Positions 1-26,299 are shown, counted from the first letter of the stretch. The stretch: 64,000 bases of DNA from Candidatus Danuiimicrobium aquiferis (GCA_001804285.1 MHFR01000068.1:34383-98382), one strand, 5' to 3'. Numbers and translations: made by a program. Notes: generated by a model not told the origin, from the sequence alone.

Positions 1-2
1 AA

Positions 3-419
3 GAAGGAAGCCGTTCGAAGGAACGCTATTTTTCGCCGCGGGACAGATATAACGAGTGGAACATCGGCGATCAGCCGCCCGAGTTCTGGAACCAATTCAA
101 AACCGACTTTGCGCCGGGGACTCATCTTCGTATTCACCCGCTTCTGGATTGGACGGAATTAAATATTTGGGAATATATTGACCGTGAACATATTCCGATT
201 ACGTCGCTTTATTTTGATCAAGGGAAAGGCGTCCGTTACCGGTCTCTTGGCTGTTATCCATGCACGTGTCCTGTTCAATCGACGGCAAAAAATACAAAGG
301 AAATTATTGAAGAACTGAAAACCGGTAAATTTTCCAATATTGCGGAACGTGCCGGCCGTGCGCAAGACAAAGAAGATTCAGGCGGCCTGGAAACATTGCG
401 CCGCGAGGGGTATATGTAA
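3..419 (+). CDS. cysD: Sulfate adenylyltransferase subunit 2 (CysD), C-terminal part; the 5' end lies outside the window
   Basis: Frame-3 translation ...[29 protein letters not shown]...[11 protein letters not shown]...[12 protein letters not shown] matches the CysD C-terminus. The stop overlaps the next start as TAATG. Confidence 0.85.
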
Positions 420-2221
420 TGTCAAGAGAACAAATGAACATTGTCATTGTGGGGCATGTGGATCACGGAAAAAGTACCGTGATCGGCCGTTTGCTTTCGG
501 ACACAAACTCGCTTCCGGAAGGGAAATTGGAGCAGGTGAAGGCAACGTGTGCCCGCAATGCCAAGCCGTTTGAATACGCATTTTTACTGGATGCCTTGAA
601 AGATGAGCGTAGTCAGGGAATTACAATTGATATTGCGCGATGTTTTTTTAAAACAGCGAAACGTGATTATATCATTCTGGATGCGCCGGGGCATATTGAG
701 TTTCTGAAAAACATGGTGACCGGAGCTTCCCGCGCGGAAGCAGCCATCTTGGTCATTGATGCCAAGGAAGGGATCCGTGAAAATACGAAACGTCATGGCC
801 TTTTAATTTCCATGATTGGAATCAAACAGGTGATCGTGCTTGTGAACAAGATGGACCTTATGGAATATTCCCGGGATGTTTTCGAAAGCTTCGTACGGGA
901 TTACGGAAAATTTCTCTCGGAACTTAACGTCACACCGCTTTGTTATATTCCGGTTTCTGCGTTTTATGGCGATAATTTGGTTTCACGGTCTCCGCATATG
1001 CCTTGGTATGAGGGCCCGGACATGTTGAGTCAGTTGGACGTACTGACGAACAAAGAAATTCCCGTGAAACTTCCGTTCCGTTTTCCGGTTCAGGATATCT
1101 ATAAATTTACGGAGGAAGGCGATGACCGTAGAATTTTAGCGGGTACGGTTGAAACGGGTGAAATTCATGTCAATGATGAGGTGCTTTTTCTTCCATCAAG
1201 AAAGAAAAGCCGGATTCAATCAATAGAATTATTTAACGCACCGGTTTTCGAGCGCGCTCAGGCTGGTCAGGCCATAGGGTTTACGGTAACGACCCAGCTT
1301 TATATTCCGCCCGGCGAAATGATGGTTAAAGTTTCTGAGAACCGTTTGCCTAAAATAAGCTGCCGCTTCAAGGCGAATGTTTTCTGGGTCGGAAATACGC
1401 CAATGATCAAGGATAAGGTTTATAAACTTAAAGTTGCGACGGCACGGGTGCCCGTCAAATTAGCGGAAATTGTTCGCGTTGTGGATGCTGCCGACTTGAG
1501 CGCTATGGTGAGTCAGCAGGTGGTCAACCGGCACGATGTGGCAACCTGTATTTTTGAGACGCTCAAACCAATTGCCTACGATCTGGGTCAAGATATCGAA
1601 GGAACGAGCCGCTTTGTCATTGTGGATCATTATGAAATTGCAGGCGGTGGTGTCATTCTCGAAAGTTTGGAAGTTCAGGAAACGGATCTGGAGCGGCATG
1701 TGAAGGATCGTGAGTATCGTTGGGACCGTGGATATGTTTCCCGCGAAGAACGAAAAATCGCTTATTCGCATTGTGGAAAGTTTATTTTATTTACGGGACT
1801 CGACAAAGATGATCGTACGAAAGTACTGGCCAAAACGCTTGAAAGAAAACTGTTTGACAGTGGTTGCAAAGCCTATTACCTTGGTTTTGAAAATTTGGAA
1901 ACCGGCTTGGATGCGGACCAGAATTATGCCCAGGATAGCCGCGAGGAGAAGATCCGGCGGCTTGGCGAGTTAGGGAGAATTCTTACGGATTCGGGTCAAA
2001 TTTTTGTGACGACCATGCCCGATTTAGATGACTACGACATCGGAAATCTTAAAAAGTTGATCAGTCCGTATGAGGCGTTTGTGGTGAATGTGGGGACTTC
2101 GTCCTTTCAAGAATTTAAATCCGACTTAAATATTTCAAAAGCAGACGACCCGCGTGAGGCGATTAACCGGGTTTGCAAATTACTCAAAGAAAAAGAAATT
2201 ATCTTTGAGTATTCGATTTAA
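419..2221 (+). CDS. cysN: Sulfate adenylyltransferase subunit 1 (CysN GTPase) fused to a C-terminal APS-kinase-like domain with a degenerate P-loop
   Basis: N-terminal [10 protein letters not shown]1 motif and EF-Tu-like GTPase domain. The C-terminal ~160 aa resemble CysC ([10 protein letters not shown]), but the P-loop reads [11 protein letters not shown] instead of GLSGSGKST and the LDGD motif is LGFE. Confidence 0.85.
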
Positions 2222-2256
2222 GTAATAGTACATAAATCATTGTGCATTTGAATATC

Positions 2257-2285
2257 CTGTCATTCCCGAATGCTGGAATGCACAA
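2257..2285 (+). repeat. Short palindromic element (tgtcattcccgaatgctggaatgcaca) after cysNC, sharing the tgtcattcccg 5' end of the repeat family
   Basis: Hairpin cattcc-cgaatgct-ggaatg nested in gtgcatt...aatgcac. The 11-mer tgtcattcccg is identical to the 5' ends of the repeat elements elsewhere in the window. Confidence 0.4.
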
Positions 2286-2350
2286 ATACTTATGCACTAT
2301 TACGTAGAGGTTCATTGGGGGCGGCTGGTTTTTTTTGAGACAATACGGAT

Positions 2351-3064
2351 ATGCGAAAAAATAAAGGGAAGGTTTTTTTAGTGGGATTCGGCCCAGGAGC
2401 GCCGGACTTGATCACGCGCCGGGGCGAGGAAGCGCTGTCGCGCGCGGAGGTGATTTTTTATGATCATTGGGTGGATCGCCGTTATCTCAGAAAATTCCAG
2501 GCTGAAAAAATTTATGTCGGCAAGCAAAAAGGGAAACACGGAAGGCCCCAGGATGAGATAAATGAGCTCTTGTATCAAGCTGCCCGGGACGGGAAATGCA
2601 TTGTACGGTTAAAGGGAGGTGACCCCTTTATTTTTGGACGGGGCGGCGAAGAACAGGAATATCTGGAAGCGCGATCAATAAGGGTTGTCGTCATCCCGGG
2701 CGTGACTGCAGCGCTTGCGGCAGCGGCGTGTGCCGGGATTCCGTTAACGCATCGAGGGGTTTCTTCTTCTGTTGCCTTTTGTGCAGGGCATCCGACAGAT
2801 AAAATTCAGACACCATGCGTTGATACAATTGTTTATTATATGGCCGGATCCAACGCTATGGAAATTATGGACCGGTTGATTCGGAATGGATGGGATAAAG
2901 AAACGCCGGTGGCATTTATTAGCAATGCAACGCTTCCCATGGAGAAAATAAGGATAAGCACTTTGGAAAAAGAAATCGGAAAGCAAAAGAGAGTTCAGAC
3001 GCCGCTGATCATGATTGTGGGGAAAACCGTTGGCATGGCAAAAGAACCCGAAAAAGAGGAATGA
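2351..3064 (+). CDS. cobA: Uroporphyrinogen-III C-methyltransferase (SUMT) for siroheme synthesis
   Basis: FLVGFGPGAPDLIT, RLKGGDPFIFGRGGEE and VVIPGVTAALAAAACAGIPLTHRG are diagnostic SUMT motifs. Confidence 0.85.
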   Translation: MRKNKGKVFLVGFGPGAPDLITRRGEEALSRAEVIFYDHWVDRRYLRKFQAEKIYVGKQKGKHGRPQDEINELLYQAARDGKCIVRLKGGDPFIFGRGGEEQEYLEARSIRVVVIPGVTAALAAAACAGIPLTHRGVSSSVAFCAGHPTDKIQTPCVDTIVYYMAGSNAMEIMDRLIRNGWDKETPVAFISNATLPMEKIRISTLEKEIGKQKRVQTPLIMIVGKTVGMAKEPEKEE

Positions 3065-3068
3065 AAAT

Positions 3069-3542
3069 TTGAAATATTATCCTGTCTGTTTGAATTTGGT
3101 TCGTCAAAACGTATTGATTGCGGGTGCGGGGCAAGTAGCCGAACGCAAGATCAAGGCCCTTTTGAAATTTAAGCCTCGCCTTAAGGTGGTTTCGCCCTTG
3201 GCGGTACCGGCTATTATTCAATTGGCCCGGAATCGAAAATTAGATTGGTTAAAAAGGAAATATCAAACATCGGATCTTAATCAAGTTGTTTTGGTGGTAG
3301 CCGCGACTTCAGATCGGGCAACGAATGGGAAAATAAGTCGGGATGCAAAAAAGAAAAAAATTTTGGTGAATGTAGTTGACGAATCCCGGCTAAGCAATTT
3401 TATTTCGCCGGCTGTTTTTCAAAAAGGAAAAGTGATTGTTGCAGTATCCACCGATGGCCGCGAGCCAAAACTATCGAGGGATCTTAAAAATTTTATTAAG
3501 GAATATTGGGATGAATTTTTATCGTTTCGGCGTAGAGGATAG
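3069..3542 (+). CDS. sirC: Precorrin-2 dehydrogenase / sirohydrochlorin ferrochelatase (SirC/Met8-like Rossmann domain). The start codon is uncertain (TTG 3069 or TTG 3096).
   Basis: VLIAGAGQVAERKIKALLKF Rossmann motif typical of the CysG N-domain/SirC. The ORF-track M at 3015 overlaps cobA, and an AGAGGA RBS precedes TTG 3069. Confidence 0.6.
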   Translation: MKYYPVCLNLVRQNVLIAGAGQVAERKIKALLKFKPRLKVVSPLAVPAIIQLARNRKLDWLKRKYQTSDLNQVVLVVAATSDRATNGKISRDAKKKKILVNVVDESRLSNFISPAVFQKGKVIVAVSTDGREPKLSRDLKNFIKEYWDEFLSFRRRG

Positions 3543-3594
3543 GACTATATAATTATTAGTGTAATTATTAGTGTTGCACACGGAGGATTAAAAA

Positions 3595-3834
3595 ATGAAA
3601 ATTAAAGTGAACGGCAAAGATCAAGTCATCGATGCGGCATCGCTGACTGTGACGGAATTATTGAAGACAGTCAAGGTGGAATCTCCGGAAATGGTATCGG
3701 TTCAGCTGAACGGAGAATTCCTGAGCAAGGAACATTTTGCTAATAAATATGTGAAAGATGCGGACGAAGTTGATTTCTTGTATTTTATGGCCGGTGGAAT
3801 TGAGGAACTTCCCGTATCGGAATGGAGAAAATGA
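3595..3834 (+). CDS. ThiS/MoaD-family sulfur-carrier protein (HcyS/CysO-like) with an 11-aa extension after the Gly-Gly
   Basis: 79 aa with a beta-grasp-like sequence ...DEVDFLYFMAGG followed by IEELPVSEWRK. A GGAGG RBS precedes it. It is co-operonic with MetY, a ThiF-like E1 and a JAMM protease. Confidence 0.75.
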   Translation: MKIKVNGKDQVIDAASLTVTELLKTVKVESPEMVSVQLNGEFLSKEHFANKYVKDADEVDFLYFMAGGIEELPVSEWRK

Positions 3835-5069
3835 TGAAAGATTTACGTTTTATTACTAAAATTTTGCATACGAAATATTTAAGAGAAGATTCTCACGGAT
3901 CGTTGCATATGCCGGTCTATGACAATGTGACTTTTGAATTTAAAACCGCCGAAGATTTGGAACTTGCGTTTCAGGGGAAAAAGCCATCTCATATGTATTC
4001 GCGCATCAGCAACCCGACGATTGAACATTTTGAACAGAGGATTAAGTCGGTGACTGGTGCTGTTGGCGTGTTAGCCCTTTCTTCCGGTATGGCTGCTATT
4101 TCTAATACCTTTTTAACCATTGCGAAGGCACAGGATAATATCATTACGAGCAAGCATCTTTTTGGGAACACATATTCTTTATTTGAATATACGTTGAGAG
4201 ATTGGGGTTTGGAAACGCGGTATACGGATTTAACAAAGCCTGATCAAGTTGCTCGCCTAATCGATCATAAGACCAAAGCGATATTTTTGGAGACCATTAC
4301 GAATCCTCAGCTTGAAGTGGCGGATATCAAAGCTTTGTCTGAGATAGCGAAGGCTAAAAACATTTTGCTAATTGCGGATACAACCCTGACGCCGCCCTAT
4401 CTTTTTTCTGCGAGAGAATTTGGTGTAGATATTGAAACCCTCTCAAGTACCAAATGGATTTCCGGAGGGGCGACCAGCGTTGGTGGGTTAATCATCGATC
4501 ATGGTCTTTATGACTGGAAACAAAACGAAAAGTTGCGGCGGGACGTTAATAAATATGGTCCATTTACTTTCATGACCCGCCTCAGGCGCGAAGTTTACCG
4601 GAATATCGGAGCCTGTATGTCACCTCATAATGCGTATCTGCAGAGTTTGGGGCTTGAAACGCTGGCATTACGGCTCGATCAGGCTTGCGTGAACACACTC
4701 AAGATTGCCGGGTTTTTAAAAGAGTCTTCCCACGTATCATCGGTGAATTATCCTGGCCTCAGGGATTCTATTTATTATGAGATTGCGGGAAAACAATTTG
4801 GCGAAAAGTCGGGAGCACTTTTAACGTTTGATTTGACATCGAAAAATCAGTGTTTTAAATTCATGAATAAATTGCAGCTGATTAGAAGAGCCACAAACTT
4901 GCATGACAACAAGACGCTGATTATACATCCGGCATCAACAATTTTTTGTGAGTACGATGACAAGCTTAAACAGGAAATGGGTGTTCGGGATACGATGCTC
5001 AGGCTCGCGGTGGGAATTGAGGACAGCCGGGATTTAATTACTGATATTCAACAGGCGCTGGAGGGATGA
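3822..5069 (+). CDS. metY: O-acetylhomoserine sulfhydrylase (PLP-dependent Cys/Met-metabolism enzyme, MetY-like)
   Basis: SRISNPT, VLALSSGMAAI and the TLSSTKWISGG PLP-lysine region. Its start overlaps the carrier-protein stop. Confidence 0.8.
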   Translation: MEKMMKDLRFITKILHTKYLREDSHGSLHMPVYDNVTFEFKTAEDLELAFQGKKPSHMYSRISNPTIEHFEQRIKSVTGAVGVLALSSGMAAISNTFLTIAKAQDNIITSKHLFGNTYSLFEYTLRDWGLETRYTDLTKPDQVARLIDHKTKAIFLETITNPQLEVADIKALSEIAKAKNILLIADTTLTPPYLFSAREFGVDIETLSSTKWISGGATSVGGLIIDHGLYDWKQNEKLRRDVNKYGPFTFMTRLRREVYRNIGACMSPHNAYLQSLGLETLALRLDQACVNTLKIAGFLKESSHVSSVNYPGLRDSIYYEIAGKQFGEKSGALLTFDLTSKNQCFKFMNKLQLIRRATNLHDNKTLIIHPASTIFCEYDDKLKQEMGVRDTMLRLAVGIEDSRDLITDIQQALEG

Positions 5070-5890
5070 TCATGAATTTTAACGAGGAACAGATAGAAAG
5101 ATATAGCCGCCATATTATCTTGAAGGATGTCGGGGTTGAGGGACAGGAAAAAATGATGGCCGGGAAAGTTTTAATTATAGGAACCGGCGGGTTGGGAGCG
5201 CCGGCGGCATTATATTTAGCAGCGGCAGGAGTCGGTGTCATCGGTTTGGTTGATGCGGACAATGTCGAGTTGTCAAATTTACAGCGGCAGGTCATTCACT
5301 TCACCCCTGATGTGAATAAACCCAAGGTGATTTCCGCTAAGGAGAAGATTGAAGCGATCAATCCGGATGTGAAAGTGGTAACGTACCACACGAAAGTGTT
5401 TTCCGAAAATATTACCGGTATCATAAAAGATTATGATTTTGTCATTGACGGGACGGACAACTTTGCGGCCAAATTCCTGATTAACGATGCTTGCGTATTT
5501 GCAGCAAAACCTTTTTCGCACGGTGCAATTTTGCGTTTTAGCGGGCAAACGATTACATATGTGCCGGGCAGTACCTGTTATCGCTGTATTTTTCTAACGC
5601 CGCCGCCGACAGATGCGGTACCCAATTGTTCGCAGGCTGGCATTTTGGGCGCAGTCGCCGGGATGCTTGGAACGATACAGGCTACCGAAGCACTCAAGTT
5701 TCTGATAAAAAAGGGAGAACTTCTTCAAAATCGGCTTCTTACTTTTGATGCTTTGGATATGAAATTTCGAGAAGTTGCCGTTACACGGAATCCTCGCTGC
5801 CCGATTTGCGGGGAAAACCCTTCGATTAAAAAGTTGATTGACGAGGCTCAGCCCGTGTGTAGTTTGAAAAATAAAAATAAGAAAACGTAA
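5066..5890 (+). CDS. ThiF/MoeB/HcyF-family E1-like adenylyltransferase for the sulfur carrier protein
   Basis: RYSRHIIL..VGVEGQ, the VLIIGTGGLGAPAALYLAAAGVG nucleotide-binding loop, and C-terminal CxxC...CPIC zinc motifs. Confidence 0.8.
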   Translation: MIMNFNEEQIERYSRHIILKDVGVEGQEKMMAGKVLIIGTGGLGAPAALYLAAAGVGVIGLVDADNVELSNLQRQVIHFTPDVNKPKVISAKEKIEAINPDVKVVTYHTKVFSENITGIIKDYDFVIDGTDNFAAKFLINDACVFAAKPFSHGAILRFSGQTITYVPGSTCYRCIFLTPPPTDAVPNCSQAGILGAVAGMLGTIQATEALKFLIKKGELLQNRLLTFDALDMKFREVAVTRNPRCPICGENPSIKKLIDEAQPVCSLKNKNKKT

Positions 5891-5894
5891 TCCC

Positions 5895-6302
5895 ATGAAA
5901 ATAGAAAAACAGATTATCGAACAATTAATTGCTCATGCAAAAAAGGAAGCGCCGCTTGAAGCATGCGGGTACCTCGCTGGGCGTGACCATGTGATAACAG
6001 TTTCTTATGAATTAACCAATCAGGATCAGAGTAGTGAACATTTTTCCTTTGATCCGAAGGAACAATTTTCAGCGGTTAAAGATGCGAGGCAAAAAGGGTT
6101 TGAAATTTACGCAGTCTATCATAGTCATCCGGCCAGTCCCGCGCGTCCTTCTGCCGAAGATATCAAGTTAGCTTATGATCCGGACATACTGTATTTCATC
6201 GTTTCTTTGGCTTCAGGACGAGAAGATGTCCGCGCGTTTGAAATTAAAAACAAGCAAGTTGAATCGGTGAATTTGGAGGTTATTCATCATGAAGGGGTAT
6301 AG
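5895..6302 (+). CDS. JAMM/MPN+ metalloprotease (Mec+/HcyD-like) that trims the carrier-protein C-terminus
   Basis: EACGYL...HSHPASPARPSAED matches the JAMM motif E...HxHx7Sx2D. It is 135 aa and sits adjacent to the ThiF-like gene. Confidence 0.8.
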   Translation: MKIEKQIIEQLIAHAKKEAPLEACGYLAGRDHVITVSYELTNQDQSSEHFSFDPKEQFSAVKDARQKGFEIYAVYHSHPASPARPSAEDIKLAYDPDILYFIVSLASGREDVRAFEIKNKQVESVNLEVIHHEGV

Positions 6303-8664
6303 CATCCCGCCTCAATTAGACGGCGAAATTAACCAGCTTGAGAAACTGATTGAAAAATTCAAGCGCGGCGAAATCACGGCTGTGGAGGTGAAAGCCCATC
6401 GTGTGCCTTTCGGGGTATATGAGCAAAGGGAGTCAGACACGTATATGATGAGAATCCGCTGTGTCGCGGGAATGATCAGCCCTTTGCAATTGGAAAAAGT
6501 TGCCGGGATTGCGACACAATACGGCATCCGTGATATTCATATTACGACCCGGCAAGAACTTCAGATCCATTATGTCAAATTGGAATATCTTGTAGCCATG
6601 ATAAGACAGTTGAAAGAAATTGGCCTGGCCACTAGAGGCGGTGGCGGAAATACCGTGAGAAATATTGTTGCACAGGAGGATGCCGGCATTAATCCTTTGG
6701 AGGAATTTGATGTTTCGCCTTACGCTTTGGCATTGACGAGCCGGATGATTGCCGAGAGTGATTCGTGGAATCTTCCGCGGAAATTTAAAATCGCCTTTTC
6801 CGGCTCATCAGAAGACAAAGGATATGCGACGATTGCCGATGTTGGTTTTATTGCCAAAATAAAAGACGGTAAAAAAGGGTTCAAAGTTTATGCGGCGGGT
6901 GGGTTGGGCGCGAAATCCGAAGTGGGTAAACTTCTTTTGGAATTTATCGGGGCGGACGAAGTATTCGCAGTCACAAAGGCTTTGAAGAATGTTTTTTTCA
7001 AATACGGCAATCGTAAGAACAAACACGCGGCACGCCTTCGGTTTTTATGGCAGAGCCTTGGCGACGAGGAATTCAGAAAAAAATTCCAGGAAGAATATAA
7101 AAAAAACAAACAGGATGAGGTTTTGCCGTTAGTTATCGAGGAAATAGAAAGTGAAGGTGTTTCTGACAAGCTATTGCCAGAAGAACCTGAAAGCGTATCC
7201 GATTTTACATTGTGGAAGGGACGATATGTCAAGACACAGAAGCAGGCGGATTTCGTCTCGATAATGATTCCTGTGGAGTTGGGTTTCATTTCGTCCGACC
7301 AAGCAAGAAAATTAGGGCATTTTCTCGCTCCATTCGGCGATAACGTGCTACGAATGACGAAGAATCAGAATTTTCTGCTAAGAAATATCCCCAAGAAGTA
7401 TTTAGGCAATATATACAATTTTTTAAAAGATATTTTTCATGGAATCAGCCGTCCGACGATTTACGGAAAGATTTTATCTTGCGCCGGGGCAGCCACATGC
7501 CAGTTGGGGATTTGTTTGTCACGCCAGGCAGCCAAAGCCGTCATGAAAGATCTTGGAGAAAGCGGTCTCAATTTGGACGATGCGGGAGATATTAAGATTA
7601 ATATTTCCGGTTGCCCCAACTGTTGCGGACAGCATCTGGCGGCTGATCTTGGGTTTTCCGGGAAAGCCTTGCGGAAAGAAGGACGGTTATATGCTGCCTA
7701 TAATGTTTTTGCGGGAGCTGTTATTTATGATGGCCGGACGAAATTTGCTGAACACGTCGGAGAAATTGCTGCGAAACATATGCCGGCTTTTGTGAAAGAT
7801 TTTCTGAACATCTATTTATTCAAAACGAAACAATATAAAAACATTCAAGAATATCTCCTGCGAGAGGGGACGAAAGAATTAAAAAAGCTTTGCCTTCATT
7901 ATAAAGGAATACCCGGTTTTGAAGAAGACAAAAACTTTTATTTCGACTGGGATGCCGACAGCTTGTTTTCACTCGCCGAACGCCGGGCGGGTGAATGTTC
8001 TGCCGGTTTTTTTGACTTGATTCAAGTGGATTTGAATCATATTCATGAAACACGGAAGATACTTGCGGCCGAACAGACTGGTGAGACCGAGAAAAAGAAA
8101 CTTCTGTATGATCTTATATTTTATTCGTGCAGAATGCTCCTGATTACCCGTGGCATTGAGCCGAAAAATGAAAGCGAAGTTTTCGAAACATTTCAGAAAC
8201 ATTTTATCGATACGGGTTTTATCGCTGTGGCGTTTAAAGAGTTGATGACTTTAGCTCTACATAAGAATTACCAAACATTGCTGGATCGGGAAAACGATGT
8301 GTCCCGTTTTTCGAAAGACGTGGAAGCGCTATATGAGAATATGGATAATAGCTTCAATTTTAAAAGGCCTGCTCCTGAGTTTGTTACACATGAAAGTGAA
8401 AGAGTTGTTTCTTCAAAAGAAAAAGCTGCTGATCGTCCGGCGGTGCTGAAAGATTTACGAGGAGTTGTTTGTCCCTTAAATTTTGTGAAAACGAAAATTG
8501 AACTTTCTAAACTGAAACCGGGTGATATTCTGGAAATATGGCTTGATGACGGCGAGCCCATCGAAAATGTGCCCGGTTCTGTAAAAGCCGAAGGTCATGA
8601 GATTGTTGAGAGAAAGAAAATAGGCGATCATTGGTCAGTGATCATCGAGAAAAAGGTGACATAA
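6289..8664 (+). CDS. sir: Assimilatory (ferredoxin-type) sulfite reductase hemoprotein with an inserted middle domain and a C-terminal TusA-like sulfur-transfer domain
   Basis: Nitrite/sulfite reductase ferredoxin-like half-domains. Siroheme/4Fe-4S cysteines CAGAATCQLGIC...GCPNCCGQH. C-terminal 80 aa LRGVVCPLNFVKTKIELSKLKPGDILEIWLDDGEPIENVP resemble TusA (CPxP-type motif). Confidence 0.8.
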   Translation: MKGYSIPPQLDGEINQLEKLIEKFKRGEITAVEVKAHRVPFGVYEQRESDTYMMRIRCVAGMISPLQLEKVAGIATQYGIRDIHITTRQELQIHYVKLEYLVAMIRQLKEIGLATRGGGGNTVRNIVAQEDAGINPLEEFDVSPYALALTSRMIAESDSWNLPRKFKIAFSGSSEDKGYATIADVGFIAKIKDGKKGFKVYAAGGLGAKSEVGKLLLEFIGADEVFAVTKALKNVFFKYGNRKNKHAARLRFLWQSLGDEEFRKKFQEEYKKNKQDEVLPLVIEEIESEGVSDKLLPEEPESVSDFTLWKGRYVKTQKQADFVSIMIPVELGFISSDQARKLGHFLAPFGDNVLRMTKNQNFLLRNIPKKYLGNIYNFLKDIFHGISRPTIYGKILSCAGAATCQLGICLSRQAAKAVMKDLGESGLNLDDAGDIKINISGCPNCCGQHLAADLGFSGKALRKEGRLYAAYNVFAGAVIYDGRTKFAEHVGEIAAKHMPAFVKDFLNIYLFKTKQYKNIQEYLLREGTKELKKLCLHYKGIPGFEEDKNFYFDWDADSLFSLAERRAGECSAGFFDLIQVDLNHIHETRKILAAEQTGETEKKKLLYDLIFYSCRMLLITRGIEPKNESEVFETFQKHFIDTGFIAVAFKELMTLALHKNYQTLLDRENDVSRFSKDVEALYENMDNSFNFKRPAPEFVTHESERVVSSKEKAADRPAVLKDLRGVVCPLNFVKTKIELSKLKPGDILEIWLDDGEPIENVPGSVKAEGHEIVERKKIGDHWSVIIEKKVT

Positions 8665-8744
8665 AAAAAGGAAAAGTATATTTAATCAGCGCCGGGCCAT
8701 ATCTCAGCTTATTCGCAGAGAAAGATTAATGCGTGGATGGTCTG

Positions 8745-8933
8745 ATAAGGCCAACGCAGGAAAAATGTTGTGCGGCTGAAAAATGGTGATCCTTTTATTT
8801 TCAGCTGGATCTCTCAGGAAATGGAAGCCTTGCGGGAAAGTCATATCGGGTTTGAAGTCGTTCCGAGAATTACTGCAGTTCAAACAGCCGCGGTTTTTCC
8901 GGGCAGCTTTGACCAACACGCTTTATGCAGCTG
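8745..8933 (+). pseudogene. Remnant of a second SUMT (cobA/cysG-like) gene
   Basis: One frame reads KNVVRLKNGDPFIFSWISQEMEALRESHIGFEVVPRITAVQTAAVFPGSF, which matches the SUMT core (VRLKGGDPFIFGRGGEE...VVPGVTAA). It has no start, is frameshifted upstream and truncated downstream. Confidence 0.6.
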
Positions 8934-9416
8934 ATGAGGCCGGAAATTGACGATTCCGCGATAGAAACCTGAGGCGAACAAAATGGGTTCATCTATTGAG
9001 GAGTCTTTTTTTATTTCCGAGTGTGAGCTCGGTCGTTCTATCCCGGCGTATTTGTGTCGTTTCTGTGAAAGCAGGAATACGCGTAAAGGGCAGGAATGAC
9101 AAAAACGACAACAACTTAACGAATCCCAACCCGATTAATTCTTTACCAGCGATTTGTTTAAAAATTTCCAATAGGATTTTGGCAAGGCTGAAACTTTTTT
9201 TACGCCCGTCCCCTTGGGGGGGGGGAATATCATTGTAATTTGTGGTTTGAAAAAAACCGAGGACAGTTGTGAAGCATTTACTTGAAAAAAGATTAATTTC
9301 GTGTAATATCTCCGTTGTAAAATTTTCTCCTAATATTGTCATAAAATATTCGCTCAAGAGGCGAAAATTTTGGCACAAATTGGGCACAAGCGATTTTTGT
9401 TCTTTTCAATTTTTTT

Positions 9417-9451
9417 TGTCATTCCCACGCGCTCTTAGCGGGAATCCATGG
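9417..9451 (+). repeat. MITE-like repeat element, degenerate copy (5' hairpin only)
   Basis: tgtcattcccacgcgctcttagcgggaatccatgg matches the 5' module of the tgtcattcccgc...gcgggaatcc family. Confidence 0.5.
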
Positions 9452-9489
9452 TTACAGATTCCCGATAAAAGCACGGCGGAGCAGTGCAG

Positions 9490-9669
9490 TCCCTGAGCTT
9501 TCTATAAAGAATAGCTTATGAGTAATTAATGTAGCTCAGGGACAGCCATGATTTTCATTGAAATATACTTGGGATTATAAATAGGGAATCATGACAGACC
9601 TTGAGATTCCTATAAAAAATGACATATGGTAACTCAAGGACAGACGCACAGGTCTGTGCGTGTTTTTTT
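9490..9669 (+). ncRNA. Candidate small structured RNA (four consecutive hairpins ending in an intrinsic terminator) just upstream of tRNA-Leu
   Basis: Stems ccctgagct/agctcaggg, catgatt/aatcatg, cttgag/ctcaag, then acgcacag-gtc-tgtgcgt followed by TTTTTTT (9644-9669). No ORF is present. Confidence 0.35.
9644..9669 (+). terminator. Rho-independent terminator (GC stem plus T7)
   Basis: acgcacaggtctgtgcgt followed by ttttttt. Confidence 0.6.
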
Positions 9670-9711
9670 AGATTGGCGGATTTTTGATGAATTTATAAGG
9701 CTTTTTGATAT

Positions 9712-9798
9712 GCCGGGATGGCGAAATTGGCAGACGCACAGGACTTAAAATCCTGAGGGAATTAACATTCCCGTGCCGGTTCAAGTCCGGCTCCCGGC
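9712..9798 (+). tRNA. tRNA-Leu (anticodon UAA) with a long variable arm; no CCA is encoded
   Basis: Acceptor GCCGGGA/TCCCGGC, anticodon stem CAGGA/TCCTG with loop CTTAAAA (anticodon TAA), variable-arm stem GGGAAT/ATTCCC, and T-arm GCCGG-TTCAAGT-CCGGC. Confidence 0.85.
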
Positions 9799-10136
9799 AG
9801 TATTTATTGTTAGGTTCTTCGGCTCATCCCGGCTCATCCCCAATAACAGGGGCAATGGCTAATTTAAGTTCATGTTTAACCGCATAAGATTTTCACGAGC
9901 AGATCTCGCAGTCCAATTCTAAAGTTCGTCAACCTCTATGCAATTTTTGCCCGACGTTCTTGCGCGGAAAAGTGCGATGTCAGCGGCTTTGATTAAATCT
10001 TTTAAAATATCCGATGATAACGCAGCACATGCTCTCTGTTTCTGCCGAATTTTTTATTGTATAAATTTGGGAATAAGATAGAATACGAAACTTATTAACG
10101 GAGTTATTCACCCATCTTCATGACGTATAAAAAAAG

Positions 10137-12041
10137 ATGAATTTTATTGTTTTGATTAAACAAGTTCCGGACGTCTCAAACATTCCAGAAGAAGCTTGGG
10201 ATAGGGAAAAAGGGACGCTTCGACGGAATATGCTTGATAATGTCTTGAATCCCCTTGATTTTCACGCCATCACGTTTGCCTGCCAGCTCCGCGAGAAATT
10301 TGGAGATGAGAGCGGAAAAGTGATTTGTCTTACCATGGGACCGCCGATGGCCAAGGAAGTTCTTCTTGACGGGATTGCGCGCGGTGCAGACGAAGCGATT
10401 TTGCTGACCGACAGGGCTTTTAGCGGGGCAGATACGATTGCAACGGCTTATTCACTGGCTCAATGCATCCGGAAAGTCGAACGGGAAATTTTTAACGGAA
10501 ATCGTGAATACATCATTATTACCGGGATGCAGTCCGTCGACGGTGATACGGCGCAAGTCCCGCCCCAAGTCGCGGAAGTGCTTGGGATGGAACAGATTGC
10601 GTATGCGCAGTCGTTTGATTTCGATAAAAGATTGGTTGTGAAACGCATCGGCCCTCACGGAATGGAATCCATTGTTCCAAAGCGATATCCCGTTTTGATT
10701 ACCACGACCGCATGTACGGAACCGCTTTACCGGTCATTTCACGGGATGCGGGGCGCGCGCGAAAAAACATTTCACCAATGGTCTGCCGCTGATATCCAGG
10801 TCGACCAAGATAAAATCGGCTTGAAAGGTTCCCGGACGCAGGTGTACCGGATTTTTTCGCCAAGTGAGGAAAGAAAAAAGGAGTGTTGTTTTCCAAAAAG
10901 CGTTGATGAATTGATCGATTTGATTGAGCAAAAGTATAAACAGGGTCCGGTGGCAGTTCAGGGGAAAGTGGGACAGGTTTACGCGATCGGGGATAAAAAG
11001 CCGAGTTATCATGGAGAACTTTGGGTTTATATCGAACAATGGAAAGGGCATGTTGCGCCGGTTTCTTACGAACTTTTGGCAAAAGCGCGCGAACTCGCCG
11101 TGCCGCTTAAAGAAAAAGTCGGTGCGGTTCTAGTGGGACATCAAATTTCTGGGATAGCGAAAGAAATGATTGCCCGCGGCGCTGATAAAGTTTATGTTGT
11201 AGATGATCCGCAGCTTGAATATTTTCTTCCGATGCCATATAAAAAAGCCGTTTCCAGCCTTGTGATTCAACACAAGCCGCAAATCATGCTGTTCGGAGCC
11301 ACGCCGCTCGGACGGGAACTTGCACCACGCGTTGCGTCAAGTTCGAATGCCGGATTGACGGCAGATTGTACGAAACTCGAAATTGAGGATTTCATCAAAG
11401 GCAAAGTTGAAATGATCGCCATTTTGAAACAAACGCGGCCGGCTTTGGGCGGAAATATTATGGCGACGATTATGACAAAAGACTGCGATACGCAAATGGC
11501 TACCGTTCGCCCCGGTGTATTGAAAGCAAATGAACCGGATCCTGCCCGGACCGGCGAAATCATTCCATTTAACATTCAAATAACGGCTGATGATATCCGG
11601 ACCGAAGTGATTGCCCGGGAGTCTTTAGTCGAAAAAGCAAGTTTGGCGCATGCGGACATTATTATTTCTGGCGGACGCGGACTTGGAACCAAATCCAGTT
11701 ACGATAAATTTATTCGCCCGCTTGCGGCCGCATTCGGCGAGATGTTTCCGGGGAAAGTTGAAATCGGTGCGTCCCGGATGGCTGTAGAAGACGGGTTTGT
11801 TCCGCATGAACATCAAGTCGGACAAACCGGAACGACAGTTCAACCGAAGTTGTACATTGCATTCGGAATTTCCGGAGCGGTTCAGCATATTTCGGGGATG
11901 CAGCAGGCTGAAATTATTGTGGTGATCAATAAAGATCCGGATGCGCGAATGTTTAATTACGCTGATTTAGGGATGGTTTCTGATTTTCAAACCGTGATTC
12001 CCCAGATGATTGAAGCGGTGAAGAGGAGAAAGAAATCGTGA
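10137..12041 (+). CDS. etfBA: Electron transfer flavoprotein, beta and alpha subunits fused (EtfB-EtfA, FixA-FixB-like)
   Basis: N-terminus MNFIVLIKQVPD is EtfB-like. The C-terminal half carries EtfA FAD-binding motifs (IISGGRGLG, YIAFGISGAVQH). 634 aa is about the sum of both subunits. Confidence 0.8.
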   Translation: MNFIVLIKQVPDVSNIPEEAWDREKGTLRRNMLDNVLNPLDFHAITFACQLREKFGDESGKVICLTMGPPMAKEVLLDGIARGADEAILLTDRAFSGADTIATAYSLAQCIRKVEREIFNGNREYIIITGMQSVDGDTAQVPPQVAEVLGMEQIAYAQSFDFDKRLVVKRIGPHGMESIVPKRYPVLITTTACTEPLYRSFHGMRGAREKTFHQWSAADIQVDQDKIGLKGSRTQVYRIFSPSEERKKECCFPKSVDELIDLIEQKYKQGPVAVQGKVGQVYAIGDKKPSYHGELWVYIEQWKGHVAPVSYELLAKARELAVPLKEKVGAVLVGHQISGIAKEMIARGADKVYVVDDPQLEYFLPMPYKKAVSSLVIQHKPQIMLFGATPLGRELAPRVASSSNAGLTADCTKLEIEDFIKGKVEMIAILKQTRPALGGNIMATIMTKDCDTQMATVRPGVLKANEPDPARTGEIIPFNIQITADDIRTEVIARESLVEKASLAHADIIISGGRGLGTKSSYDKFIRPLAAAFGEMFPGKVEIGASRMAVEDGFVPHEHQVGQTGTTVQPKLYIAFGISGAVQHISGMQQAEIIVVINKDPDARMFNYADLGMVSDFQTVIPQMIEAVKRRKKS

Positions 12042-13621
12042 AAGAGATCGATGTCCTGATTATCGGTGCTGGACCCGCCGGCCTCGCGACTGCGATACGC
12101 CTCAAGCAAAGGTTGAATGCCGAGAAGAAAGACGCGTCTGTCGTTGTGATTGATAAAGAACCGAAACTCGGGTTTCATAATTTATCCGGCGGTGTTTTTG
12201 AAGCCGGCTGCCTTGATGAATTAGTTCCCGGTTGGCGCGAAGGTGAGGAATCTTTTTTTAAACAAACGGTTGAGATTCAAAACGACGAGCTTTATTTTTT
12301 GCTTCCCAAAGCGGCTTTTAAAATTCCTCATCTTGTGGTGCCGAAACTCATGAATCATATCGGAGATTACGCGGTTTCCGTCAGTCGAATGGCTATCTGG
12401 CTCGGAACGGTTGCGCAGAATTTGGGTGTTGAAATTTATTTGGGATTTTCCGCAAAAGAGCTTTTGATTGAAGATGGAAGGGTCAAAGGCGTAAAGCTGA
12501 TGGATTTGGGTCTTGACCGGGACGGAAAGAAGAAATCGAATTTTCTACAGGGTGAAACGGTTCATGCAAAAGTGACCGTTTTGTGCGATGGTTCTCACGG
12601 TGTACTTTCGGAACAACTTTCGAAATTATTGCCGCCGGCAAAAAATCCGCAAGTGTATTCGATTGGGGTGAAACAGCTGATTAAATTGCCGCCCGAAAGT
12701 GCATTTGGGAATAATCGCGCGATTCATACGCTTGGTTTTCCGAACCGTTTCGATGTTTTTGGTGGCGGTTTTATGTATAGCATGCCGGACAATATGATAG
12801 CGATCGGTCTCATTTTGGGGCTCGACTGGCCGTACGGCGATTTGAATGAGCAGCAGGAACTTGAGGTGTTCAAAACGCATCCTTTGATTGCGCGTTTTCT
12901 GAAAGATGGAAAAATTGTTGCGGCCGGAGCGAATACGATTCCCGAAGGCGGGTATTACTCGATTCCCAAATTGTTTACGAACGGCGCTTTGTTGGTAGGA
13001 GATTCAGCCGGTTTTGTGAATATGGAAAAAATCAAAGGAATTCATTATGCGATTCGGGGCGGAATGAGCGCTGCGGATGCAATTTTAGACGCGTTGACCG
13101 CGAATGATTTTACGGAAAAGATATTAGCAAAATATGAAATAAATTTGAAGGAGAGCGGTATTTTAAAAGAGCTTTATCACGCCCGGAATTTTCGGCAGGG
13201 TTTCAAGTACGGACTTCCTATCGGAATGCCGCTTTCTCAGATCCAAAGTTTTATTCCGTTCCCGATCAGTATCGAGGAAGATTATAAAGGCACGAAAAAG
13301 GGGAGACGGCTGAATCGAAAGAAACAAGACTCAATGGATCGCGCGCAGTTTGTTGCGTTGTCAGGTTCGTCGCATGATGAAAATCAACCGTCCCATGTCG
13401 CAATTCCCGATCCTGAGTTGTGTCAGCAATGCGGCAAGTTTTACGCTTACTCGTGTACGCATTTTTGTCCGGGGGAAGTCTACCGGCAAAAAGACGGAAA
13501 AATCGTATTGAGTCCTTCCAATTGTTTGCATTGTCAAACCTGTATAATCAAATGTCCTTTCCATAATATTACGTGGACACCCCCCGAAGGCGGCGAAGGC
13601 CCGAGATTTAAATATCTGTAA
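12038..13621 (+). CDS. Electron-transfer flavoprotein:quinone oxidoreductase (FixC-like FAD domain with a C-terminal FixX-like ferredoxin domain)
   Basis: VLIIGAGPAGLATA FAD-binding GxGxxG motif. C-terminal Cys cluster CQQCGKFYAYSCTHFCPGE...CLHCQTCIIKCP. Confidence 0.75.
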   Translation: MKEIDVLIIGAGPAGLATAIRLKQRLNAEKKDASVVVIDKEPKLGFHNLSGGVFEAGCLDELVPGWREGEESFFKQTVEIQNDELYFLLPKAAFKIPHLVVPKLMNHIGDYAVSVSRMAIWLGTVAQNLGVEIYLGFSAKELLIEDGRVKGVKLMDLGLDRDGKKKSNFLQGETVHAKVTVLCDGSHGVLSEQLSKLLPPAKNPQVYSIGVKQLIKLPPESAFGNNRAIHTLGFPNRFDVFGGGFMYSMPDNMIAIGLILGLDWPYGDLNEQQELEVFKTHPLIARFLKDGKIVAAGANTIPEGGYYSIPKLFTNGALLVGDSAGFVNMEKIKGIHYAIRGGMSAADAILDALTANDFTEKILAKYEINLKESGILKELYHARNFRQGFKYGLPIGMPLSQIQSFIPFPISIEEDYKGTKKGRRLNRKKQDSMDRAQFVALSGSSHDENQPSHVAIPDPELCQQCGKFYAYSCTHFCPGEVYRQKDGKIVLSPSNCLHCQTCIIKCPFHNITWTPPEGGEGPRFKYL

Positions 13622-19228: not shown

Positions 19229-19374
19229 GTGACTAATGTCTAGTGACAAATTTTTCGTTTCACAAAAACTTTCCCCTTTACATTATTTTTTTAATTTCTA
19301 TAATAAACAGCAGTTACAAATTGATCTTTTAAACATTCGCCTTTATGGCGTAAGGTGCTTTGAGCAAATGCCCA

Positions 19375-19600
19375 AAGCTTAATAGGGAAGAGAGCCATGC
19401 GACGCTGATATCGATTTTTATTTGAAGCGTTGCAAGGACTCCACGGTGCCGCCGCTGTCGGCAAGAACGAAAGCGAAAAAACCACTGTTCTGACATTGTC
19501 GGAATGGGAAGGATCGCGAGTAGGTGAAGTGCTTGCCAGTCAGAAGACCTACCTTGATACATCAAAACATCTCCGAGCAGAGAACGAATAGTTGGGTTTT
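19375..19600 (+). promoter_or_regulatory. Candidate cobalamin (B12) riboswitch aptamer in the leader of the TonB-dependent receptor / btuFCD-like operon
   Basis: AATAGGGAAG...GGTGCCGCCGCTGTCGG...AACCACTG...GGGAAGG resemble the conserved AGGGAA / GGTGCC / GCCACTG (B12-box) / GGGAAGG elements. It lies in a 550-nt leader before a BtuB-like receptor. Confidence 0.5.
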
Positions 19601-19606
19601 ATTTTT

Positions 19607-19657
19607 CCCCTTTTGTTTTGTCTCTTGTCTGGAGATGAAACGAAAGGGGTTTTTTTA
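19607..19657 (+). terminator. Expression-platform hairpin plus T-run (terminator that sequesters the RBS) immediately before the receptor start codon
   Basis: ccccttt...aaagggg stem followed by ttttttt, then ATG at 19657. The SD-like aaagggg lies in the 3' half of the stem. Confidence 0.5.
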
Positions 19658-22014
19658 TGTCCAGGAACGAGCTATTCCTGAATAAATGTGATTCAGTATT
19701 CCGGTTTTTTCATCAAAGTTCAGCAGTTTTGTCATCCCCGCGGAAGCGGGGATCCGGCAATTTTAGATTCCCGCTTAAAGCATGCGGGAATGACACGATT
19801 CATGTTTTCAAAATTGTTTGTTTTTTCTTGTCTCTTTTTTTAAGCGTTTCTATTTTTGCCTTCGCAAAAACAGAAACACCCAAACCAACCGTCACTCAAA
19901 CAAACCAAAACGGTGACGTCAAAAAATCCGCACAAAAACCCGTCGCCGAAGTCACCGTGATTGCGTCGCGACTGCCGAGTTTTCAACAAAAACTCAACGA
20001 TATGCCGTCCAATATCACCTATAAAGATAAAACAGAACTGAATAAAACCCATCCCGCGACATTTCAAGATGCGGTTCGCGATACGGAAGGGGCCATTTTT
20101 TATGACCAAGTTGGAAACGGAGTTGATACGACATTCAGTTTGAGAGGATTTAATGAAGGAAATGCGGTGACTTTTATAGTGGATGGTGTTCGGGTGAACG
20201 AAGTAGATGGTGATGCTGTGAATTACCCTTTAGTTTCAATGAATGATATCGAGTCAATTCAAATTGAAAGAGGTTCCTCATCAGCCATTTATGGTAGTAA
20301 TGCGTTTGCGGGAGTTGTGAATATTACCACAAGAAAGCCAAGCGCTAAGAAGATTAGTGTTTTTGGTGGAGTTGAACTGTCCAGTTTTATGGGGATCAAA
20401 TTTAATCAAGGAATAAGCGGAAGCATTCCCGATAAAATAACACCGTTAAATGGTAAATGGACATACTATTTTAATGGCGGCCGCGATCTTAATCAGGGTT
20501 TTCGAGCTGATGGTGATTGGCGAATTACAAATTTTGACATAAAAACAGGATATGAATTAGCGGACAGTCAGGGCGGGGTTCGCGTTGGAGTCAAGCATGT
20601 TGTTGATGCTATTTCAAATCCCGGTTTTTTAACGATTCCCGAATATCATGCAGATTCAATGCAAACGAAAAATCCGCTCGATGGTCGGAAGTTTGATAAT
20701 ACAATTGTGCAAATCAGTGCAGATAAGAAATTTTTGGATGACCGGATTACTGCCAGCTTGATGAATAATTGGCGATATAATTTGATCAAGTTTTATACAA
20801 CAGCGCGCACAATGGCGGATGGAGCCTTTAATCCGGACACAGATTTGACGACTACGCGTTCTCGGGCAACGGATCTGGTCTGGCAATTAGGTTACAGTGA
20901 TCGTTGGGATTGGGTCGGGAATGATACGTTACTTGGAATGGAATTTCGGGATGCTGCACAATATGATCTTGAGCAAGATGCGTTTCAAGGGATAGTGGTT
21001 GATAATAGTCCGGCCGAGACCAATCGGAACGCAAAGCCTCGTTCCGGGGCACTGTTTTGGAGACAAAACGTATCATTTTTTGACCGGATTAATTTTCATT
21101 ATGGAATGAGGCATGATTATGTATGGCTGAAGAATCAAGATAAAGTAGCACCGGTAAATAATTTCTCTAAACGATGGAACGATTCTACACTATCGACAGG
21201 TGTTGCGCTGAAACCGTGGTCATTAGCTGATTTTTTCTGGAATTATTCACAAGGTTTTCGAGCACCTGCTATTAGTGATTTAGCGCCATGGTCGGAATGG
21301 GGGGGCTCGGGTGTTTCTTACAATCTTGCGCCTGAAAAATCGGATAGTTATGAAGCAGGTACTCGGCTGAGATTACATCCTCGGGCGAATGTAAAATTGA
21401 GTTATTTTCTCATCGATATGAAAAATGAAATTGCTTACTCGCTAGGAGTCGGTGAGAATATTAATATCGGACGAACCCGTCGTTATGGGACTGAATTCCG
21501 TTTGGATACAAATCCTATTGAAGAAATGATTTTTTACGGTGTGCATACTTGGACGAATGCGTATGTGCGTGAAATAGATGATAATTTTAATCAAACCGTG
21601 GATGGCAGAACGATTGGGATGATTCCTGAACAGCAGTTCGTGTTTGGCACAACAGCAAAACCGTTCAAGAGGTTAGGAGAATATTGGGATAAGTTTGAAA
21701 TCGGTATGAACGGTACATTGACAGGGAAGCAGCATCCAGTTGGATTTGAATCGTCCACCGAAGCGAGATTGGATAGTACAAGCCATTGGATTAAAGCATA
21801 TCAGATTTGGAATTTTATCTGTCAATATGAATTCCATGGAATCCAGACATATTTCAAAATTAATAACATTTTTGATCAACGATATTATAATCGTGCTATT
21901 GCGGCGTCGAACTCAGCGTTTTCCCCCTCTTCGCTTACGCCCCCAGGGACTCATTATTTTGTTACTCCTGGAGCGCCCAGGGAATTTGTCATTGGAACGA
22001 AGTGGGAGTTTTGA
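19657..22014 (+). CDS. TonB-dependent outer-membrane receptor (BtuB-like) whose N-terminal leader contains a translated repeat element
   Basis: TonB-box-like EVTVIA, plug domain (FSLRGF...VDGVRVNE...IEIERGSSSAIYGSNAFAGVVNI), beta-barrel, and C-terminal ...GTKWEF. The repeat at 19730-19795 is in frame before the hydrophobic signal segment. No in-frame ATG lies downstream of the repeat. Confidence 0.75.
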   Translation: MSRNELFLNKCDSVFRFFHQSSAVLSSPRKRGSGNFRFPLKACGNDTIHVFKIVCFFLSLFLSVSIFAFAKTETPKPTVTQTNQNGDVKKSAQKPVAEVTVIASRLPSFQQKLNDMPSNITYKDKTELNKTHPATFQDAVRDTEGAIFYDQVGNGVDTTFSLRGFNEGNAVTFIVDGVRVNEVDGDAVNYPLVSMNDIESIQIERGSSSAIYGSNAFAGVVNITTRKPSAKKISVFGGVELSSFMGIKFNQGISGSIPDKITPLNGKWTYYFNGGRDLNQGFRADGDWRITNFDIKTGYELADSQGGVRVGVKHVVDAISNPGFLTIPEYHADSMQTKNPLDGRKFDNTIVQISADKKFLDDRITASLMNNWRYNLIKFYTTARTMADGAFNPDTDLTTTRSRATDLVWQLGYSDRWDWVGNDTLLGMEFRDAAQYDLEQDAFQGIVVDNSPAETNRNAKPRSGALFWRQNVSFFDRINFHYGMRHDYVWLKNQDKVAPVNNFSKRWNDSTLSTGVALKPWSLADFFWNYSQGFRAPAISDLAPWSEWGGSGVSYNLAPEKSDSYEAGTRLRLHPRANVKLSYFLIDMKNEIAYSLGVGENINIGRTRRYGTEFRLDTNPIEEMIFYGVHTWTNAYVREIDDNFNQTVDGRTIGMIPEQQFVFGTTAKPFKRLGEYWDKFEIGMNGTLTGKQHPVGFESSTEARLDSTSHWIKAYQIWNFICQYEFHGIQTYFKINNIFDQRYYNRAIAASNSAFSPSSLTPPGTHYFVTPGAPREFVIGTKWEF
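19730..19795 (+). repeat. MITE-like repeat element inside the 5' coding region of the TonB-dependent receptor gene
   Basis: ttgtcatccccgcggaagcggggatccggcaattttagattcccgcttaaagcatgcgggaatgaca. Confidence 0.7.
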
Positions 22015-22601: not shown

Positions 22602-22608
22602 ATTTAAT

Positions 22609-22679
22609 GGTCATTCCCGCCTCCCTGGAAATACAGGGCTGGCCCTCGTCTTACCGAGGGAAGATTTGCGGGAATGACA
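22609..22679 (+). repeat. MITE-like repeat element (intergenic)
   Basis: ggtcattcccgcctccctggaaatacagggctggccctcgtcttaccgagggaagatttgcgggaatgaca. The terminal inverted repeats enclose two internal hairpins. Confidence 0.7.
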
Positions 22680-22698
22680 GATAACCCATTATTCAAAT

Positions 22699-24302: not shown

Positions 24303-24322
24303 AACGGGTTTCATAAATCTCT

Positions 24323-24432
24323 GTCATTCCCGCAAGCTTTTGGCGGGAATCTATAAACGTCTTCGTCACAATGCATTGAGAGTCGGATCCGCCTCTGGCG
24401 GAGATTCCCGACTAAAGCTTTCGGGAATGACA
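24323..24432 (+). repeat. MITE-like repeat element (110 bp, intergenic)
   Basis: tgtcattcccgcaagcttttggcgggaatc...tcggatccgcctctggcggagattcccgactaaagctttcgggaatgaca. Confidence 0.7.
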
Positions 24433-24446
24433 TCTTTGGAGTTTGG

Positions 24447-26292: not shown

Positions 26293-26299
26293 GGGAATC

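Follow-up and report, generated by a model that had tools for sequence, protein, structure and literature searches.

Does the sulfate-assimilation operon of Candidatus Danuiimicrobium aquiferis, a member of the Omnitrophota, pass reduced sulfur to homocysteine by way of a protein thiocarboxylate, and what is to be made of a sulfur carrier that continues for 11 residues beyond its Gly-Gly? Both questions are raised by the 64,000-nt stretch of DNA analyzed here (GCA_001804285.1 MHFR01000068.1:34383-98382; hereafter the window). An initial annotation, made from the sequence alone, had placed four genes at positions 3595-6302, between cysD-cysN(C)-cobA-sirC and a sulfite reductase gene, and had read them as a route of the HcyS/HcyD/HcyF/MetY type built into a sulfate-assimilation operon. 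Open reading frame (ORF) listing and profile scans revealed four consecutive ORFs on the + strand at these positions, encoding the carrier, MetY, an E1 enzyme and a JAMM protease, and the scans identified the same flanking genes on both sides.

The core of this reading is supported by the predicted fold of the carrier, the motifs of the enzymes, the kinship of MetY, the order of the genes and their correspondence to an operon type described earlier (PMC1779556). We consider it very probable that the module represents an HcyS/HcyF/HcyD/MetY-type protein-thiocarboxylate route to homocysteine, co-transcribed with genes for sulfate reduction by the adenylylsulfate (APS) route and for siroheme synthesis. 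The presence and order of the genes, the fold, the intact motifs, the relationship of MetY to its Wolinella counterpart and the module's conservation can be read directly from the data; the chemistry would be that worked out in Wolinella.

The carrier, its partner enzymes and the route to homocysteine

The first gene (3595-3834) encodes a protein of 79 aa, which was matched by the ThiS profile of Pfam (E = 5e-10) and by TIGR01683 (1.8e-13). Both profiles terminate exactly at residue 68, the second glycine of G67-G68; this pair is therefore taken as the canonical C-terminus, and the following 11 residues (IEELPVSEWRK) as an extension, in agreement with the internal Gly-Gly pointed out previously. 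The mature part of this HcyS-type carrier (residues 1-68, ending F-M-A-G-G) occupies positions 3595-3798. The tail (11 codons and a TGA stop, as read from the DNA) extends over 3799-3834, where it overlaps the ribosome-binding site and start of metY. The terminal F-M-A-G-G aligns to the C-terminal motif of the family, D-F-L-Y-F-M-G-G-G, with A-G-G in place of G-G-G. A sequencing artefact was ruled out as the source of the tail, since the identical protein was found on at least 24 contigs from several samples.

An AlphaFold2 model of the carrier (mean predicted local distance difference test score, pLDDT, of 80; core 82-91) contains its elements in the beta-grasp order, with the tail as a low-confidence coil. 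The top Foldseek match of this model was 3CWI, the "ThiS" of Geobacter metallireducens (template modelling (TM) score 0.80/0.90, 55% identity), followed by authentic ThiS proteins complexed with ThiF or ThiG; the PDB matches of the sequence were 2k5p/3cwi (E = 1e-16). The beta-grasp fold, for which the initial annotation had wanted confirmation, is thus supported by the model and its structural matches.

The second gene, metY (3834-5069, with an alternative ATG at 3822; Cys_Met_Meta_PP, 4e-106), encodes an O-acetylhomoserine sulfhydrylase of the Wolinella, thiocarboxylate-using type, in which the lysine binding pyridoxal phosphate (PLP) lies within SSTK. Its best PDB match by far was the Wolinella enzyme 3RI6 (7.5e-132, 443 bits, 51% identity over 406 aa), while the second best reached 292 bits. 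This enzyme has been singled out among MetY proteins as having a carrier-protein thiocarboxylate, not bisulfide, as its sulfur donor (PMC8191291).

The third gene (5066-5890, public start 5072; ThiF, 6.5e-79) encodes an HcyF-like E1 adenylyltransferase of the ThiF/MoeB family. This protein of 274 aa consists of a ThiF domain only, with no rhodanese domain, and matched both ThiF and MoeB of E. coli at about 1e-55, E. coli ThiF being its top PDB match. The motifs GTGGLG, NLQRQ and DGTDN, the two CxxC pairs (CYRC and CPIC) and Cys188 are all intact.

The product of the fourth gene (5895-6302; Prok-JAB, 1.8e-25) is an HcyD-like JAMM/MPN+ zinc metalloprotease of 135 aa, with an intact E...HxH...S..D motif (E22, H76-S-H78, S86 and D89). 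Among solved structures it was most similar to 2kks (8e-33), which we take to be from Desulfitobacterium hafniense, and it also matched P. furiosus JAMM1 (E = 2e-11). The species of these nearest PDB relatives of the JAMM protease and of the carrier (3CWI) are both on the list of organisms with the operon type mentioned above (PMC1779556), which lends further support to the reading.

In the proposed pathway, (i) the JAMM protease would cut the 79-aa pro-carrier after Gly68, removing IEELPVSEWRK, (ii) the rhodanese-less E1 would adenylate the exposed Gly-Gly carboxylate (Gly68), (iii) the acyl-adenylate would be converted into a thiocarboxylate with reduced sulfur from the adjacent sulfite reductase, either as sulfide or via the cysteine of a TusA domain fused to that enzyme, (iv) MetY would use the thiocarboxylated carrier as the nucleophile that attacks O-acetylhomoserine, and (v) the carrier-homocysteine adduct, once rearranged by an S-to-N acyl shift, would be hydrolysed by that same JAMM protease, yielding homocysteine and the recycled carrier. 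These steps are modelled on the Wolinella pathway (reportedly described in JACS 2011, 133:379, and Acta Cryst D 2011, 67:831) as it is presented in secondary sources.

A protein search with the carrier returned 695 homologues, and the carrier family (recognized by the motif FLYFMGGG) is encoded in at least 536 species genomes, one genome having been scanned per species. The matches came from the Omnitrophota, Spirochaetota, Bacteroidota, Planctomycetota, Fibrobacterota, Acidobacteriota, Bacillota, Desulfobacterota, Campylobacterota and other phyla. Gene layouts were surveyed in 80 fetched loci, one per species genome, from more than 10 phyla; Wolinella itself was compared through its MetY, and metagenome-assembled genomes (MAGs) of Campylobacteraceae and Helicobacteraceae served as proxies for its carrier locus. 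By far the commonest layout was that of the window: carrier, metY at about +220 nt, E1 at about +1450, JAMM at about +2270 and sulfite reductase at about +2700, with TusA at the C-terminus of the reductase. This order recurs in L001 and L002 and in the majority of the 80 genomes. In most of the loci the carrier and metY genes are translationally coupled, and their adjacency is kept across phyla.

Several observations weigh against the proposed route. (i) In Bacteroidales, Clostridia and Campylobacterota the genes also occur in the order carrier-E1-(TusA)-JAMM, with no metY next to them (L024, L033, L040, L045, L047, L066, L081 and others, with the carrier at 7001), and given this layout the carrier family may serve more than one acceptor. 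(ii) A bona fide CysK is encoded in the same operon (TIGR01139, 481 bits; cutoff 351), so free sulfide would still be needed for cysteine. (iii) The scanned part of the window yielded no homoserine O-acetyltransferase. (iv) The carrier scores above the NCBI thiS equivalog cutoff (TIGR01683, 50.6 bits against 37.45), and it is publicly annotated as "thiamine biosynthesis protein ThiS". The scan, which ended at 41 kb, covered 20 ORFs in the range 13.9-41.1 kb, and none of these was a thiamin or methionine partner gene (thiG, metX, metE/H). In view of the operon CysK, the earlier statement that sulfide passes to a protein thiocarboxylate and not into use as free sulfide is too sweeping; at best it could hold for the methionine branch.

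The metY-less layouts and the CysK of the operon also fit another reading, in which MetY uses free sulfide in vivo and the carrier, E1, JAMM and TusA feed some other acceptor, as in cysteine synthesis or in the thiolation of a cofactor or of tRNA. MetY enzymes in general do accept bisulfide (PMC8191291). However, the MetY of the window groups with the Wolinella enzyme, 150 bits apart from the MetY proteins that use free sulfide, translation of metY is coupled to that of the carrier in most loci, and the CysK is a standard cysteine synthase A, not of the CysM type. Delivery to another acceptor is possible for the metY-less variants and less likely in the window, and as an account of this operon we consider it unlikely.

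The C-terminal tail and the carrier-metY junction

The tail of the carrier can be followed at the DNA level. It contains GAGGAA at 3802-3807 and GGAG at 3824-3827; the latter lies 6 nt upstream of the ATG at 3834, which overlaps the carrier stop codon in TGATG and agrees with the public gene call, and 3834 is thus the likelier start of metY. The corresponding region of L001, the closest relative (69% identity), reads GGT GGA GGC GAG GAA GCA TTA TGA, giving the tail EEAL; here GAGGAA acts as the Shine-Dalgarno sequence of metY, and the stop and start codons overlap in ATGA. Compared with L001, the window has kept GAGGAA and carries 21 additional in-frame nucleotides with the new GGAG and the TGATG overlap at 3834. 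The junctions in the window and L001 suggest that the tail arises where the carrier frame is read through the ribosome-binding spacer of metY as far as the overlapping stop codon, and that it is a by-product of the gene overlap.

Across the family, the tail was absent from only 4 of 119 proteins and from 4 of the 80 loci, which end at the motif. The median tail length in these two sets was 2 aa; tails of up to 3 residues made up 65-72%, those of 11 or more 9-13%, and no conservation of tail sequences was observed. Neutral read-through at the local base composition would give a mean of 14.5 codons and P(<=3) = 0.23. The observed tails are much shorter than this, which argues that short tails are favoured and long ones merely tolerated.

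Since about 95% of the members keep at least one residue after GGG, C-terminal trimming would be a nearly universal property of the whole carrier family, and the length of the tail appears to be set by the way in which the carrier gene abuts metY. The 11-residue tail of the window probably has no function of its own and is tolerated, because the protease would remove anything that follows Gly-Gly; like the proposed route, of which it forms a part, we hold this explanation to be very probable. Removal of 11 residues would be mechanistically unremarkable, as JAMM enzymes (DRJAMM, HvJAMM1 and PfJAMM1) cut long linear fusions after the terminal glycine of the carrier (PMC8832034). The initial annotation had stressed that the tail is much longer than that of HcyS. 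It is indeed long beside the published HcyS-Ala, but within the family, where 9-13% of the tails are at least as long, an unconserved read-through of this length is unexceptional.

If the tail were instead under selection as a pro-peptide, gating activation of the carrier, for example, or docking on JAMM or MetY, this would account for the retention of some tail by nearly all members of the family, and for the fact that several tails finish W-R-K or W-R-Q-K, as does that of the window (W-R-K). The latter likeness is, however, explained by the codons of the overlapping metY Shine-Dalgarno sequence (tGG AGa aaa TGA). Neither the length nor the sequence of the tail is conserved (EEAL in the homologue with 69% identity), the distance between the median of 2 aa and the expected mean of 14.5 indicates selection for shortness and not for particular sequences, and the tail is modelled as a low-confidence coil. 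We therefore regard a selected pro-peptide as very unlikely, and as a conserved element we reject it.

In some loci the carrier is in frame with a second protein: with a full-length MetY in a Spirochaetota MAG (L051, 7001-8446), with a DsrE-like protein in L044 (7001-7680), and with the N-terminus of MetY on two short contigs (L003, 842-1207, and L005, 262-570). If real, such fusions would be natural "pro-carriers" that need JAMM cleavage. All four are regarded as unproven and could be artefacts of indels. The L005 fusion (P0024) lies on a contig of 1x coverage and has an in-frame stop; that of L003 (P0079) is chimeric, with adapter sequence at its end; and those of L051 and L044 contain A-rich homopolymers, where an indel of 1 nt would restore an early TAA. 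Judging by their MFD isolate names, the L051 and L044 assemblies are presumably based on long reads.

Sulfite reductase-TusA, the surrounding operon and the remaining alternatives

The module is followed on the + strand by the gene of a NirA/Sir-type siroheme sulfite reductase (6289-8664; NIR_SIR, 5e-42; NIR_SIR_ferr, 8e-32). A feature that the initial annotation had not mentioned is the TusA (SirA) domain at its C-terminus (residues 722-788, approx. nt 8452-8652; 1.7e-19), with Cys728 in the sequence CPLN. The same fusion is present in L001 (12654-14996), in L002 (6996-9326) and in most other carrier loci, and all 70 tblastn hits share the cysteine in CP[MLI][NT]. L002 additionally contains a DsrE_2 gene and a free-standing TusA gene between those of E1 and JAMM.

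The fused TusA probably substitutes for the rhodanese domain that is absent from E1. A bolder version, which we put forward as doubtful, is that the cysteine of TusA would pick up sulfur at the siroheme site or close to it and hand it on, in persulfide form, to the acyl-adenylate of the carrier on the rhodanese-less E1, so that the sulfur of the methionine branch would never be free sulfide. If this were true, such channelling would be the equivalent, in assimilation, of the transfer from DsrAB to DsrC, and the variable carrier tails, extending in some genomes to fusions with whole MetY or DsrE-like proteins, would follow a "pro-ubiquitin" principle in bacteria, with JAMM cleavage as the step that licenses the sulfur relay.

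The operon is ordered CymR-like regulator, cysK, APS reductase, cysD, cysN, cobA, sirC, module and sulfite reductase, the regulator, CysK and APS reductase genes lying just upstream of the window. The four genes from cysD to sirC, described next, are all on the + strand. The window opens within cysD (sulfate adenylyltransferase small subunit), of which only the 3' end is included (1-419, the in-frame translation ending at 419); on the full contig it corresponds to a CysD gene encoding 293 aa (L006, 5944-6825; NF003587, 351 bits). It is followed by cysN (419-2221; TIGR02034, 339 bits), which encodes the GTPase subunit; at the C-terminus of this protein lies an APS-kinase-like domain (residues approx. 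450-600) that has a degenerate P-loop and matches the APS_kinase profile only over its first half (positions 2-80 of 152). The degenerate kinase domain, together with the upstream APS-type reductase, suggests that sulfate is reduced by the APS route and not via phosphoadenylylsulfate (PAPS), and that the kinase domain is a non-catalytic remnant. Next come cobA/cysG-C (2351-3064; TP_methylase, 7.8e-50; NF004790, 248 bits), for a uroporphyrinogen-III C-methyltransferase of the siroheme branch, and sirC/cysG-N (3015-3542, public start 3069; NAD_binding_7, 1.8e-26; TIGR01470, 125 bits), for a precorrin-2 dehydrogenase-like protein. A promoter and terminator scan of 1-10200 gave counts no higher than those of shuffled controls, and an Rfam scan detected no riboswitch in the operon part of the window.

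This context bears on a further alternative, namely that the carrier, E1 and protease form a ubiquitin-like conjugation system of the SAMP/UbaA/desampylase type and not a metabolic sulfur relay. In its favour, E1 matched the UbaA model NF047750 (334.6 bits), JAMM matched the desampylase model NF041370 (76.6 bits), and P. furiosus JAMM1 is among the PDB matches of the protease. Both profile matches, however, fall below the curated cutoffs (450 and 130, respectively), no E2-like protein is present, and the module is strictly embedded among metY and the genes of sulfite reductase, siroheme synthesis and APS reduction. Since SAMP systems also act in sulfur transfer, a relay would still be possible even then. 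We judge this alternative to be extremely unlikely.

Finally, a genuine thiamin ThiS with ThiF as its E1, beside metY by coincidence, is what the TIGR01683 score, the public name and the top PDB match of E1 (E. coli ThiF) would indicate, but this is barely credible: no thiG, thiH, thiC or thiE was found among the scanned ORFs of the window and its upstream flank, the carrier stop overlaps the metY start in an adjacency that holds across phyla, a JAMM partner and a tail after Gly-Gly are present although JAB proteins never occur in thiamin operons (PMC1779556), and the carrier, which is 55% identical to the Geobacter protein of that operon type and only 26-28% to E. coli and B. subtilis ThiS, departs from thiamin ThiS proteins, which end at Gly-Gly and have thiG/thiF/thiH/thiO and no JAB protease as neighbours.

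As the context of the carrier is that of methionine synthesis and sulfate assimilation, the public ThiS name is open to doubt, and it is probably a misannotation across the whole carrier family. The practical value of the present analysis lies in annotation: members of this family are routinely named "thiamine biosynthesis protein ThiS" and score above the NCBI thiS cutoff, and the thiocarboxylate route was noted in 2017 to be absent from MetaCyc and KEGG (PMC5764234). With the family present in so many species genomes, the methionine and thiamin capacity of uncultured groups such as the Omnitrophota can be misjudged. To this the survey adds a nearly universal trimming, a tail length tied to the abutment of carrier and metY, and a TusA with an invariant cysteine that is usually fused to sulfite reductase; these are modest additions, which leave the known picture of the pathway unchanged.

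Downstream of the operon, a region of approx. 1.5 kb (8665-10136) contains no long ORF; the public gene calls in it comprise only a minus-strand ORF of 117-132 aa without a Pfam match, and a tRNA-Leu(taa) gene is located at 9711-9800. In the following region (10137-13621), a single ORF of 634 aa joins electron-transfer flavoprotein (ETF) beta-like and alpha domains and is followed by an ETF:quinone oxidoreductase-like gene. Further downstream, a cobalamin riboswitch (19336-19570, + strand, 71.7 bits) precedes a run of genes (19657-27079) for a TonB-dependent receptor, TonB, an Asn-synthase-like ORF, a Diphthamide_syn_2-like ORF, and periplasmic-binding, FecCD and ABC ATPase proteins. This run is a B12-uptake operon that holds two unexpected genes of the ATP-pyrophosphatase type.

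Comparison with known systems

The closest counterpart is the HcyS-HcyF-HcyD-MetY-Sir system of Wolinella succinogenes, with which the window shares a ThiS-like carrier with one or more residues after Gly-Gly, a JAMM protease, a rhodanese-less E1, MetY, sulfite reductase and the setting of a sulfate-assimilation cluster. The Wolinella pathway is reportedly the work of Krishnamoorthy and Begley (JACS 2011), and the MetY structure 3RI6 is said to be that of Tran et al. (2011). The two systems differ in the length of the tail (1 residue in Wolinella, 11 in the window) and in phylum, the window belonging to the Omnitrophota. Moreover, metY directly follows the carrier gene in the window and is coupled to it, whereas it was non-adjacent in both Campylobacterota loci fetched. 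A Campylobacteraceae member of the carrier family (L047) ends GGG-A, like the published HcyS-Ala of Wolinella.

The module also corresponds to row 4e in Table 1 of Iyer, Burroughs and Aravind (2006), an operon type of Geobacter, Wolinella, Desulfitobacterium and others that combines ThiS/MoaD, JAB, E1, SirA (= TusA), sulfate-assimilation genes and O-acetylhomoserine sulfhydrylase, in which E1 always lacks a rhodanese domain and SirA is always present (PMC1779556). Every component listed there was found in the window, with the differences that SirA/TusA is fused to the C-terminus of sulfite reductase and that the adenylylsulfate kinase domain is degenerate. The phylum of the window is not on the 2006 list for this operon type (PMC1779556).

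The CysO-MoeZ-CysM-Mec+ pathway of M. tuberculosis, as it is cited within PMC6225789, likewise couples a thiocarboxylate carrier to a PLP-dependent sulfhydrylase, with a JAMM protease that frees the amino acid. The beta-grasp thiocarboxylate carrier, the PLP-dependent sulfhydrylase and the JAMM release from an adduct are common to both systems; the M. tuberculosis product is cysteine and not homocysteine, and its E1, MoeZ, has a rhodanese domain. CysO (3dwg_C) was only a distant structural match to the carrier of the window (E = 0.03, TM approx. 0.5). CysO ends in Gly-Gly and is not known to need trimming, Mec+ acting on the CysO-cysteine adduct; its earlier citation as an example of a trimmed carrier was overstated.

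Exposure of a terminal glycine by JAMM cleavage at a linear peptide bond, irrespective of the sequence behind it, is likewise known for MoaD-MoaE/DRJAMM of D. radiodurans, SAMP1/HvJAMM1 of H. volcanii and SAMP2/JAMM1 of P. furiosus (PMC8832034). PfJAMM1 is a sequence relative of the protease of the window, but these systems serve molybdopterin synthesis or protein conjugation, whereas the module of the window would serve methionine synthesis. Set beside all of these systems, the module is a new and typical member of a known, experimentally characterized and often mis-annotated pathway, and its long tail is an ordinary variant.

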